From Pseudogymnoascus verrucosus (Eukaryota), in assembly GCA_001662655.1 (NCBI GenBank), contig KV460206.1: a stretch of 64,000 bases of DNA. One strand, 5' to 3'. The first letter of the stretch is position 1. Every line of letters starts with the position of its first letter. The notes under the pieces are model-generated. The model searched no databases. It worked only from the letters and a program-made list of their open reading frames with translations, and was not told the origin of the DNA. The translations under genes and the position numbers were made by a program. Shown here in pieces: positions 30,622 to 35,300 of the stretch.

Positions 30622-32366
30622 TCAAGAGACGTGACATTTCACCAAGTCATCAGAAAGGTCGTCAGACTCCGCTTTGGCCCCCGTCAGCCGCCACAGCAGG
30701 ATCTATGTCGTTGTGTCAGCTTCTCCGCTCCCACCTTCTATCCATCAGCAGAGGGTAGAGGTAGACTCACTCTTATTAATCGAAGACGCCGTCGTCAAAG
30801 ACGGGTTCGTCGAGGTCTCCACCACATCACCCCGCTCAACCTGCATCTCCACATCCTCTCCCCCCTTTCCTCCCTTCCCACCCTTCCGGGACTCCTTGAG
30901 GCAAAACCGCCGCTCAGAAAACTTCCACGGCGTCCCAGCGTGCGCCTTCTCCTCGAGGACGTCGTCGAAGGTCTTTCCCTCCAATGCAGCGGCGCGACGG
31001 ACGCGGCGCGTGCGGATGAGCCAGATGCCGTGGGAGCCGAGGATGCCGAGTTCGAGGATTATGACGGCGATGTAGAGGATGCCGCCGAGGATGTCGAATT
31101 CGTGTTGGGCGACTGGTGGTGGGTGTTAGGGTGCTGATAGTTTGGGGGTTGGGGAGGGGCGGGGGAGCATACCGAGTGCCATGAGGGAGAAGAAGGCGCC
31201 GAGAAGGTCGATGAAGATGAACCAGAGGCTTATGCCGACGACGCGGCCGCGGCGCTTCCACATCTCGTAGTAAGGTGGGAGGAGGCCGATGGCGACGAGG
31301 AGGGAGGCGATGACGCCGACGATTATCATGGGGTAGTCGATGCCGCGGTTGTAGAGGGGCTGTTGGGCGGTTAGTTGGAAATATTCTGGGGAGGCCTGGG
31401 AAGAGATCCCTGAGAATGAGGGCGAAGAGGGTACACATGGGTTGGAGTTGCAAAATTGGCTTTCTGCCCAGGGACAGATGGGTGAGATTGGAGACGAGGG
31501 GAAGAAAAACGTACCCTCAGCGTGAGGACTAATACCGCCTGAGCACCTCCAAAGATGGCCGCTGTGGTTACCCCATAGATGGTAGCTTTAAACCATGACC
31601 ACCCACTGCACGCAGGTCAGTAATGTAAGCAAGACTTGCGGCCCTGATGAGGGATGTGAGGGAGGTGATATCTTACTTTCCGTAGACAAGGATCTGAACC
31701 CATGATATGAGGGACAGCGTGCAGAGGAGCTGAGGCTGGATCTGGAGTGGCGTATTGAAGTGCTTTTGACCGTTAGTATATCAAGGCAAGGCCTCGACTG
31801 GAGAGCATAGATCAGTTGGAAAGTGTACTTGGACGATGGCGTATGTGCCGAATGGGACTGCGGCAATAGCCCATAAAAAGACCATGGCAGGTGGCAAGCC
31901 ATCTGTATCTTTGGTCTTCCAATTTGACCAGATTCTGAAGGGTGGTTAGGACGCAATGGCTAAGAGAACAAAAAGGGGTTGGCCATACTGCGGAAGTAAC
32001 TGTGGGGTTGTTAGCATGTGTTCATGATATATTTGTTGTCACGTTTCTGGGGTGGGGCTGGTCTTACTTGGATGCACCATAATCTTGATGTGGCTGTCAG
32101 TAAAGTGGAAAAAGTGAGCCTTCAAAGGGTGGGAATATAACATACACTGTTGCAAGTTAGAAAGGTCACAGTGATCAGAGGCGCGGCATGACTTACCTGT
32201 GCCAATTGTCTACACCAAAATATCAAGGTTCAGATTAGATCTCTATGTGAAGTGGAAGTAAGAGGACTTACACCAAGGACATTTGCAGCCTGTTGGAGGT
32301 CAGAACATGTGAGTCGTTGGGTGAAGTCAGCGAACTTACAACAGGTTGTTCCTCTATAATTGCCAT
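30622..32366 (-). CDS. PQ-loop repeat membrane transporter, about 12 exons with six very short 5' exons
   Basis: Manual splicing gives MAIIEEQPV-AANVLG-TIGTVLWCIQ-LLPQIWSNWKTKDTDGLP...QIQPQ...GLLPPYYEMWKRRGRVVGIS..F..IDLLGAFFSL. The last intron (30703..30770) and the C-terminus are less certain. Confidence 0.85.
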
Positions 32367-35300
32367 CTGCATCCAAAATGTGGTGATAATATCTGAAGTT
32401 GAACTTGCAGTCGAATATATAGGAGTGTAAGAAGAAGAAACAAGAAGAACACGGAGACAAGAAAGCAGGAAACCAAAAGTAGATTGGAAAGAGTAGATGT
32501 TGGGACCGGCTGCTATTGTTCGGTCTCGGGTATATATAACAATGGCTATTGAAGAAGGGGGAAAAAGAGGATCGAATCCTTACAAGTGAATCTGGACCCT
32601 GATAGACAGATAGATAGGGAGGTGATCCGGAATAGCTGAAATCCCACGCCAACCGCGCCAGCCGGGGAGATAGCAGCAGGGGGACGGCATCTCTTGTGGA
32701 GAAGAGGGGAAAAGTATTATCTCATGGCTGTCGCATGTCTTGGACGGCATTGGCCTTGACAGGGCCAGATAGCAGGTACAGCAAATAGTACGTCAAATAT
32801 CGTCTGCACACTCCATCTGATACACGGTAATGGGATTTCTAGTGGGAATTTCTCAGGTTAGTGGTGATTAGCGGTTATTAGTGGTGCGTTAGTAGTGGTA
32901 AGTAGTGGTCAGTAGCGGTTAGTAGTGGTTAGTTGGTGGCTAGGGCTACTGAAAATGGACGTGAGGGTGGATGGATGTGATGGATGTGATTGATGTGGGA
33001 GGGAAGGATGGGAGTGACCGGATGAGAATATTGGACCTTGGAGACGTGATTGGCAGGTGTGATTACGCGCTGTAGGAGCCCAGAGCTCTCTGAATTGATC
33101 TAGGGATGTTTGAGTTGTGGAGCGACGGGCTGAGACGGGTTGGAGGCTAGATTTGGATTGGATTCTTCAGCGTTTTTAATATAATACTGCATATAACTGC
33201 ATTCTGATCTTTTCATATCCATCTCAATCGGTGAGAGGCTGGCCATATAGGGCAATGTGCGGGTATTGTGGTGGTTGCAGTATTACGCACAGTAGAGGAT
33301 ACAGTGCAGTAATTACGCACATAATGTACATAATGCACGCACGCACACCCAACACACACGACCCGGTTCACGACTAACAAACCAACGATCAACGGCAGAC
33401 CAGGCCGGTCAGCACAGGCATATACTGTATGACCTGCATCAGCTATTTACGCTAAGATCTCCGATGGACGGACAACCGAAGATCGGGCGATCCGCGACAA
33501 GGTGGGATGGGGATGGGAAATAGAGGGTTTTGAGGGGCTGGAAAGGCTGGAAGGCTGGTGGTGGCTCGATGTCGAGGCGTTATTTTTTCCCCAACAGGAT
33601 ATCCCGGGCTGTGGCGGCTATGTTAAAAAAGAAAAATAACTATTGATAGGCACGGCACATATACATATACATACATATCCATGCCGCACCAACACCAACG
33701 AAGACCAAAGAAGGGTCAAGTTCGGCAACGACAAGACACATAAGAATACAGGTCATATAAAGAGTGCATTCTCCTGTGCGTTGAGGGTCTGTCTGTTGGC
33801 CCTGCAGACTCACTGCCCCACCATTCATCCCTTGTCTCCATGTCTGGTCAATGGTCCGACGACGACGACGATCGATGCTGCAGACTGAGTGGCTAACTGC
33901 GTGGCTATCGCGGGTGCGGAAAGAACGAAGAAGGCAGCTGGACTGTGCCGATGCTCGCTGATATCCGTTTCTGGCCAGATGCCACCATGGCCCCCCAGGC
34001 CTCCAGGGCCCCAGGGCATGTATATCATGTATATCACCATAGTATACATGTATGAGCATACTCATCTGTTGTCCGGAACCACGAATTAGGGAAGACGGAG
34101 CTTCACCTGCAGCACATATGCATTTTTTGAGACTGAGGGTGTAGAAGTTTTATCCGCGCAACCAACGACGGGGTATGAAGTCAAGAACAATCCAGTGAGA
34201 ATACAGCAAGCACCGTCCTCGCACCTACCCCCATTTTGTGATTTTATAATACATGCGCCAGACGCGGCTACATGTATATATATATGTTGCCGCTGAATAT
34301 TCAGAGAATCTTCCGGCTTGACGTCACGAGATTTATTATTAGTAGAGAGACAGAAGGAGGGAGAGCGAAGAGAGTGACAGACAACTATGGAAGGAGGGCA
34401 CGGAACGGAGTTATTAGAAAGTGCGGGGGGGAGGGGGAGCTATGGGCACAAGGTCCCCCAAAATCGGCTATCAACCAATCATCGCAGTCGTAACCTTGCG
34501 TGCTGAACCCCACATTCGTCTGGACAACAAATTGTGGACAGTTCATGGTATTTGGATATTTACTAAGGATACTCTACTCACAAGGAAAGTCAGTAGAACC
34601 TCAATTGCTTTCCACCAGTTCCTGAGAAAGTGATATATATATTATATACACCGTCCGCCCCTTCATATACATACGCCTTTGTATATCCAGTTTCAAGCTG
34701 CACACCTGCAGCTACCTTGTGTGTGAATTTGGTAAGTCAAACCACCCTCTCTTTCTTCCCTGTTCCAGCACTCTTTGGCCAGTTGCACCTGCATTGGAAT
34801 GAGGATCATGCGGGAACCCACAAACAAACGCAAAGATGCACCGATCCGTCTGGCTCTTCTGGATCTGCGACTCACAAAATGCGGGATTGCTGGTGAAATA
34901 TCTCGGAATAGCATTCTTTATCTTCGCTGGCCGCCTACACGCCCTCACCTATTACTGCCGCCTACCTGGAACCTCTCAATGAACTGTTATAAATATCGCC
35001 TACTCAATCAAGCCTTTTCAAATTCAAACCCGATCACACATTCATCTGCACGACCAAAGCTTCACAGTCATTGTCAGCTGCCACGAACAAACTGAGGCTT
35101 GAACCACTGTCAAGATGGCCTCCGGGACCGGCCCGTACCAATTCAGCACACCCACCAGGAAGCCCAGGCGAACCTATGGCCTCAAAATTGGCTACAACAC
35201 TCCTTTTAGCAAGAAGAAGGCCGAGGACTCCTCCACGAACTCTTCACCTGAATCTACAAGCTCATCTTCATCAGCGCAGTCTGCTAACTTCATTGCTCCT

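Follow-up and report, generated by a model that had tools for sequence, protein, structure and literature searches.

A single T at position 32146 on the minus strand is very probably a genuine, constitutively included exon of one nucleotide in a gene for a PQ-loop repeat protein of Pseudogymnoascus verrucosus. We refer to the whole 64,000-nucleotide stretch of DNA that was analyzed as the window. Reading the minus strand, exon 3 ends with ..GGCACAG at 32197 and is followed by intron 3 (32147..32196, 50 nt), which runs GTAAGT..TCTAAC..CAG; 10 nt separate its branch A (32157) from the 3' end. Next come the lone T, intron 4 (32084..32145, 62 nt; GTATGT..ACTGAC..AAG, the branch A at 32097 standing 13 nt before the 3' end) and exon 5, which opens with ATTATGG from 32083 and reads ATTATGGTGCATCCAA. 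Two complete introns, each with donor, branch site and acceptor, lie exactly one base apart. An earlier note on this DNA had given the boundaries of both introns and of the T, and our reading of the minus strand found them correct to the base. The T, exon 4 of our model (32146..32146), is the second base of a valine codon, an assignment based on the reading frame, on the length of a spliced contig and on the occurrence of T in 17/17 lineages.

The base is needed for the frame and for the conserved spacing of the protein, as indicated by the frame check, the alignment and the profile scores. Frame arithmetic revealed a coding sequence that is open throughout when the T at 32146 is included and shifted when it is skipped or when the intron pair is read as a [D1,2] stwintron; both frameshifts had been claimed in the earlier note. 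Among the readings compared, the frame was open only in those that contribute one additional base. The motif by itself carries little information. The 64-kb window contains YAGNGTADGT three times; the expectation from 100 shuffles was 1.94, 30 of these shuffles reached three, and the bare motif is not beyond chance. Significance therefore has to rest on context, and it is the context that rises above chance: two complete introns with branch motifs, a frame that needs the base, and T in 17 of 17 independent lineages.

The gene model was built by coordinate-based splicing with a script and refined with contig joints. In its revised form the coding sequence (30662..32366, minus strand, as are all features below unless stated) comprises 12 exons and 11 introns and encodes 312 aa. 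The first seven exons measure 27, 18, 13, 1, 16, 11 and 106 nt, with six introns inside the first 86 coding bases. Exon 1 (32340..32366, 27 nt, ATG..CCTGTT) is followed by intron 1 (32290..32339, 50 nt, GTAAGT..CAG) and by exon 2 (32272..32289, 18 nt), which encodes AANVLG, a string present in 17/21 named Pseudogymnoascus models. Beyond intron 2 (32210..32271, 62 nt, GTAAGT..TAG), exon 3 (32197..32209, 13 nt, ACAATTGGCACAG) encodes T I G T and contributes G as the first base of the Val codon. Exon 5 (32068..32083, 16 nt) supplies A as its third base and continues with L W C I Q, matching the homologue motif [LFC]WC[IV]Q. It is separated by intron 5 (32000..32067, 68 nt, GTAAGA..CAG) from exon 6 (31989..31999, 11 nt), which encodes L L P plus the first two bases of Q, and intron 6 (31935..31988, 54 nt, GTATGG..CAG) leads to exon 7 (31829..31934, 106 nt, IWSNWKTKDTDGLP...). 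This run of very small exons (27, 18, 13, 1, 16 and 11 nt) could serve as a benchmark for gene finders and spliced aligners.

The profile PF04193 (curated cut-off 22 bits) matched the translation of exon 7 with 34.5 bits (E 1.7e-8) and that of exon 10 with 28.2 bits. The annotated protein P0002 (NCBI: Pseudogymnoascus sp. VKM F-4519), to which the exon 10 translation is 100% identical, scored 72.5 bits over two matched stretches, in keeping with membership of the PQ-loop family. The full identity of exon 10 assigns the window to that fungus or to a near-identical one. The valine lies in the first transmembrane helix, within the first PQ-loop repeat and eight residues ahead of the PQ dipeptide. 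A profile search of solved structures returned 0 matches, and sequence comparison therefore supplied no structural template.

A search with exon 10 retrieved 98 relatives, 36 of which carry G-x-x-G-T followed by one residue and [LFC]WC; at this single position 27 of them have I, 7 have V, and G and R occur once each. The remaining 62 comprise 26 proteins with the PQ motif and another N-terminal stretch, and 36 without the N-terminal region. All 22 full-length homologues aligned gap-free at this point, with exactly one residue between GT and [LFC]WC, and the one-nucleotide model preserves this family spacing, GT-[I/V]-[LFC]WC, without a gap. Against a profile of the 22 homologues, the one-nucleotide model scored 434.8 bits, a model with ATSR in place of the valine 425.2 bits (a three-residue insertion) and the public annotation 388.6 bits (a ten-residue deletion). 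The earlier note had proposed that the codon is assembled as G|T|A from three exons, giving TIGT-V-LWCIQLLPQ, and this is supported by the fit of the protein, by RNA length and by conservation, the latter two described below.

Public annotations have failed at this site. TIGTVLWC occurs in 0/21 named public Pseudogymnoascus models, none of which, like many models in other genera, has the correct first transmembrane helix, and the correct N-terminus was found in 0/24 cluster-member sequences examined. Nine of the 21 Pseudogymnoascus models fuse AANVLG straight to L-x-PQ, and the others begin downstream or run through introns. Specifically, the read-through models P0003 and P0008 continue as ..TIGT VYVIS.., P0004, P0105 and P0106 as ..LAQ CMLYPH.., and P0101 and P0109 as ..TCNS or ..TRNS before a splice. 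These seven models translate as expected of ..CAG|T|GTATGT.., from which we infer that at least seven other Pseudogymnoascus strains would have the arrangement, a reading drawn from protein text and not from their DNA.

Proteins of Helotiales and Sordariales, among them P0010, P0013, P0017, P0057, P0060, P0063 and P0084, are garbled at the same codon, where they show read-through, omit residues or have an out-of-place R or G. Judged from these protein sequences, such garbling suggests that the one-nucleotide exon may defeat gene prediction well outside Pseudogymnoascus. In P0063 a phase-1 donor is joined to a phase-2 acceptor, which is suggestive and was deduced from a mis-annotated protein. 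In P0006 and P0106, the PQ-loop gene is annotated as a fusion with its upstream neighbor (517-518 aa, start MKMVPARRRR...), and these fusion models are probably a by-product of unrecognized small exons.

Metagenome contigs were scanned with the 22-protein alignment, yielding 80 loci that were sorted by regular expressions and, for the remainder, by eye. The alignment of orthologous loci for a conserved AG-N-GT, which the earlier note had put forward as a check, bore the arrangement out: AG|T|GT was present in 23 of the 80 loci, or 23 of the 73 that reach the site (7/80 do not), and the middle base was always T. The codon was uninterrupted in 50/80 loci, and 0/73 loci reaching the site carried one intron alone. 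Each of the 23 loci follows the pattern exon ..[G/A] | GT..AG | T | GT..AG | N + [LFC]WC, with a single solution. They represent 16 lineages (groups with <90% identity), or 17 when the window is included.

Across the 17 lineages, the middle base was T in 17/17, the first base G in 14 and A in 3, and the third base A in 6, C and T in 5 each, and G in 1. The split codon always encodes Val or Ile, as in intronless genes: the 50 uninterrupted codons were GTC (15), GTA (10), GTG (8), ATC (7), ATA (6), ATT (2), CTG (1) and TTC (1), with T at the second position in 50/50 and GGN in none. The flanking introns measure 43-72 and 47-95 nt and are unrelated in sequence. A CTRAY-like branch motif was found in every flanking intron of the 17 lineages, and in 16/17 the motif of the upstream intron lies 10-13 nt from that intron's AG. 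Conservation of the arrangement in orthologous loci is what was observed, and among the lines of evidence for a one-nucleotide exon this comparison of sequences is the strongest. The recurrence in 16 further lineages with unrelated introns constitutes strong natural evidence of faithful splicing.

The microexon series (27, 18, 13, 1, 16 and 11 nt; 31989-32366, minus strand) recurs whole or in part in related loci: two (L027 and L036) retain the exons of 16 and 11 nt, one (L022) no longer has either intron 5 or intron 6, and another (L026) has lost only intron 5.

Contigs from four runs were aligned to the gene. Two runs, X1 and X2, derive from organism A, a close relative; the other two, X23 and X24, contributed unspliced contigs only, and record 13 of X23, a DNA contig, is collinear with the window over 31911..32500 with 0 gaps. 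The X1 and X2 contigs are joined exactly across introns 7 to 10 and have no coverage inside them, from which we infer that they represent spliced RNA; the tool's own guess was 'RNA?'. Specifically, X1 record 2 contains exact joints at intron 7 (31763..31828, 66 nt; joint 31762/31829), intron 8 (31606..31676, 71 nt; 31605/31677) and intron 9 (31360..31514, 155 nt; 31359/31515). Two X2 contigs contain the joint 31112/31173 at intron 10 (31113..31172, 60 nt), and contigs of both runs cover exon 7. Intron 11 (30703..30770, 68 nt, GTGAGT..TAG) has its joint, 30702/30771, in X2 record 3, which carries 10 differences in 141 aligned letters. Removal of intron 11 deletes the stop of the initial model and of the read-through annotations; the C-terminus changed, the frame was checked, and the revised protein ends ..SSINKNPAVAADGGQSGV with its stop at 30664..30662.

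A single contig spans the junction of interest and allowed a test of length. X2 record 8 (263 nt) aligns to 32461..32339, including all of exon 1, with 0 differences and to 31934..31853 with 2, and 58 letters, read as a length and not as letters, replace the 404-nt stretch 31935..32338, which takes in intron 1 and ends at the 3' joint 31934/31935 of intron 6. Intron 1 opens with the G at 32339; this base matches the first base of exon 2 and was taken up by the aligner. The spacing between exon 1 and exon 7 is therefore 58 + 1 = 59 letters, equal to 18 + 13 + 1 + 16 + 11. Between exon 1 and exon 7 the one-nucleotide exon predicts 59 letters, the ATSR model 68, skipping of the T 58 and the stwintron 57. 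Expressed as letters between the two contig pieces, the ATSR model predicts 67, skipping of the T 57, the [D1,2] reading 56 and the public annotation 28, against 58 observed. The length of X2 record 8 fits the model with the one-nucleotide exon, in a test of length and not of sequence.

Eight readings of the junction were listed, and only three give both an open frame and 59 letters: the one-nucleotide exon and two versions of a single non-canonical 112-nt intron, TA..AG or GT..AA, in which the mRNA would carry G for T and the codon would become GGA (Gly). Such an intron matches the contig as well as our model does, and glycine does occupy this column in one annotated homologue (P0016, 1/22 aligned homologues). 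It is nonetheless very unlikely. Its splice sites must be non-canonical, it leaves unexplained the normal intron length of each half, and the T at codon position two in all 50 uninterrupted loci, with no GGN, speaks against a glycine codon. Moreover, the internal AG|T|GT persists together with a branch motif 10-18 nt upstream in 17/17 lineages, for which a single non-canonical intron gives no reason.

The earlier note had set against its own reading a single 103-nt intron running from 32196 to the AG at 32094, with the protein TIGT-ATSR-LWC. Its frame is open and its profile score still reaches 425.2 bits, but it is contradicted by X2 record 8, which has 59 letters in place of the 68 predicted from exon 1 to exon 7 (58 in place of 67 between the contig pieces). 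It would also add three residues, including an Arg, to a transmembrane helix at a point where 22/22 homologues are gap-free, and would place the branch A of ACTGAC just 3 nt from the AG at 32094. We consider this intron extremely improbable. Equally hard to credit, taken together, are a [D1,2] stwintron or an undivided intron of 113 nt in a gene that is a frameshifted pseudogene or makes another product, and a lone T that is an assembly error. A donor-like G+TGTAT does form once intron 3 is removed, and 21/21 public gene models avoid the one-nucleotide exon. The stwintron and the 113-nt intron, however, put the gene out of frame and call for 56 or 57 letters against 58. The same arrangement is also present in assemblies independent of this one, at 23 metagenome loci and, to judge by read-through models, in seven other strains, and the downstream exons are spliced and conserved.

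Two related classes were considered as candidates for the arrangement and rejected. A [D1,2] stwintron should leave a functional mRNA once its external intron is removed, and here the product would be out of frame, with 56 letters predicted against 58 observed. A recursive splice site, or zero-length exon, does not describe the locus, where one T separates the AG from the GT and the frame of the mRNA depends on it.

Further searches for direct traces of the junction returned no matches within their scope. One-intron splicing intermediates were not seen among the contigs of the four runs on the gene, the 80 metagenome loci included no mRNA and genomic pair of the same organism, and the 15 short metagenome contigs had no poly(A) ends. 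A 54-aa open reading frame enclosing exon 7 had no match among proteins of 29-95 aa; among longer proteins it matched six Pseudogymnoascus models only, with no transcript-derived protein spelling out the junction.

Intron definition is the usual mode for short fungal introns, and introns 3 and 4 (50 and 62 nt) are two ordinary short introns of the U2-type GT-AG class that flank the T, both of them complete with a donor, a branch motif and an acceptor. The spliceosome would recognize each of them separately by intron definition, and the mature mRNA would read ..CACAG + T + ATTATGG.., with one Val codon (GTA) built from three exons. The AG and GT are only one base apart; two spliceosomes therefore cannot hold both sites together, and removal of the two introns in succession, which the earlier note had called a must, is most likely. 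Either order of removal would leave the other intron intact. The locus offers a simple system for studying the order in which abutting introns are removed.

The distribution of the arrangement was placed on a rough FastTree phylogeny (74 tips, ~200 columns stitched from tblastn pieces), and the taxon labels of metagenome loci come only from this tree and from best hits to named proteins. Loci with the one-nucleotide exon occupied four places: with the window and the transcript-like Logan protein P0009 (support 1.0); with Hyaloscypha, Stipitochalara, Mollisia and Phialocephala (0.994); among Sordariomycete proteins, where the support of the Sordariales-like node was only 0.28; and in a distant clade (0.966) that also holds two intronless loci. 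On the evidence of these sequences, the arrangement appears to be inherited and common to Pseudogymnoascus relatives, Helotiales-like and Sordariomycete-like lineages and a more distant clade. Of the metagenome tips, 13 fall within the clade that joins the named proteins of Leotiomycetes and Sordariomycetes (0.945), and all 13 have the one-nucleotide exon, which fits one old origin with repeated joint loss. Such an origin, and not repeated gain, is what the pattern points to, within the limits that paralogy and a weak tree place on this reading. Gene conversion by cDNA would take out two introns that are one base apart together.

Taking this further, we consider it an evenly balanced prospect that the T is the most widely conserved one-nucleotide exon yet, a single ancient feature older than the split between Leotiomycetes and Sordariomycetes, perhaps older still, whose introns form an inseparable pair lost only as a pair. 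If this were true, a T in place of the consensus-friendly G would show that the spliceosomes of filamentous fungi need no exonic information at either splice site, and the locus would be a natural substrate for studying whether the order of removal of abutting introns is obligatory.

One-nucleotide exons mark the lower limit of what the spliceosome handles, and few are documented. The closest parallel is in the CYP621A P450 genes of Fusarium, where a one-nucleotide exon, presented there as the first in fungi, was described in 20 orthologues with SRA read support (Nelson and Syed 2026, PMC12940212). The two cases share much: a single base between two GT-AG introns in a fungal nuclear gene, forming the second position of a codon within a conserved motif, recognized through out-of-phase boundaries with an intronless relative as length marker, kept among orthologues and overlooked by annotation. 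They differ in gene family, a P450 in Fusarium and a PQ-loop transporter here, and in range: the CYP621A case lies within Fusarium, whereas the PQ-loop case extends to 16 further lineages, Leotiomycete-like, Sordariomycete-like and more distant. They also differ in the base itself, which in Fusarium is a G (AGGGT) argued by the authors to be favored as fitting both splice-site consensus sequences, whereas the T of the PQ-loop gene does not fit donor position -1. Splicing here would be independent of an exon base that matches the splice-site consensus.

In Arabidopsis, APC11 contains a constitutive one-nucleotide exon for which the authors favor intron definition with successive removal of the flanking introns (Guo and Liu 2015, PMC4674806). 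The PQ-loop exon resembles it in being constitutive and in the mechanism proposed, but APC11 is a plant gene that was tested by GFP fusions and base substitutions, and the PQ-loop case is computational only. A long-read annotation of Coprinopsis cinerea lists 13 one-nucleotide exons in 13 genes (PMC12230235). That work indicates that such exons recur in fungal genomes under full-length transcripts and that omitted microexons break gene models; it concerns a basidiomycete and gives genome-wide counts, and not PQ-loop genes or cross-class conservation in the parts compared. The earlier note had called one-nucleotide exons very rare, with APC11 as a reported case: the APC11 report stands, and 'very rare' needs updating in light of the fungal cases in print (PMC12940212 and PMC12230235).

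Stwintrons, especially of the [D1,2] and [D1,2]/[A2,3] types, are complex intervening sequences of Pezizomycotina that are spliced consecutively (Fekete et al. 2017, PMC5587772). They share with the PQ-loop gene intron positions one nucleotide apart, but the internal intron of a stwintron splits a splice signal belonging to the external intron, and no base between them stays in the mRNA, whereas here the introns are independent and a base would be retained. Recursive ratchet points, zero-length exons of the form AG|GT that allow stepwise removal (Discussion of PMC4674806), likewise place a donor right after an acceptor and remove RNA in steps. As outlined in that Discussion, they leave no base in the mRNA and occur in very long introns, whereas the PQ-loop gene would keep one base between introns of 50 and 62 nt. 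A search of the literature, from which subscription journals were mostly absent, found no account of a one-nucleotide exon either for PQ-loop genes or for Pseudogymnoascus. The T exon of the PQ-loop gene adds to a known rare class, and what is novel is the T base and a spread far past one genus.

Upstream of the gene, we observed two tandem arrays, both ~500 nt from the start codon. The first (32858-32938) has a 10-nt period and ~8 copies, CCACTAAC-like on the gene strand and resembling branch-site motifs; the second (32955-32997) has a 9-nt period and ~5 copies, CACATCCAT-like. Both arrays could be promoter elements or simple repeats.
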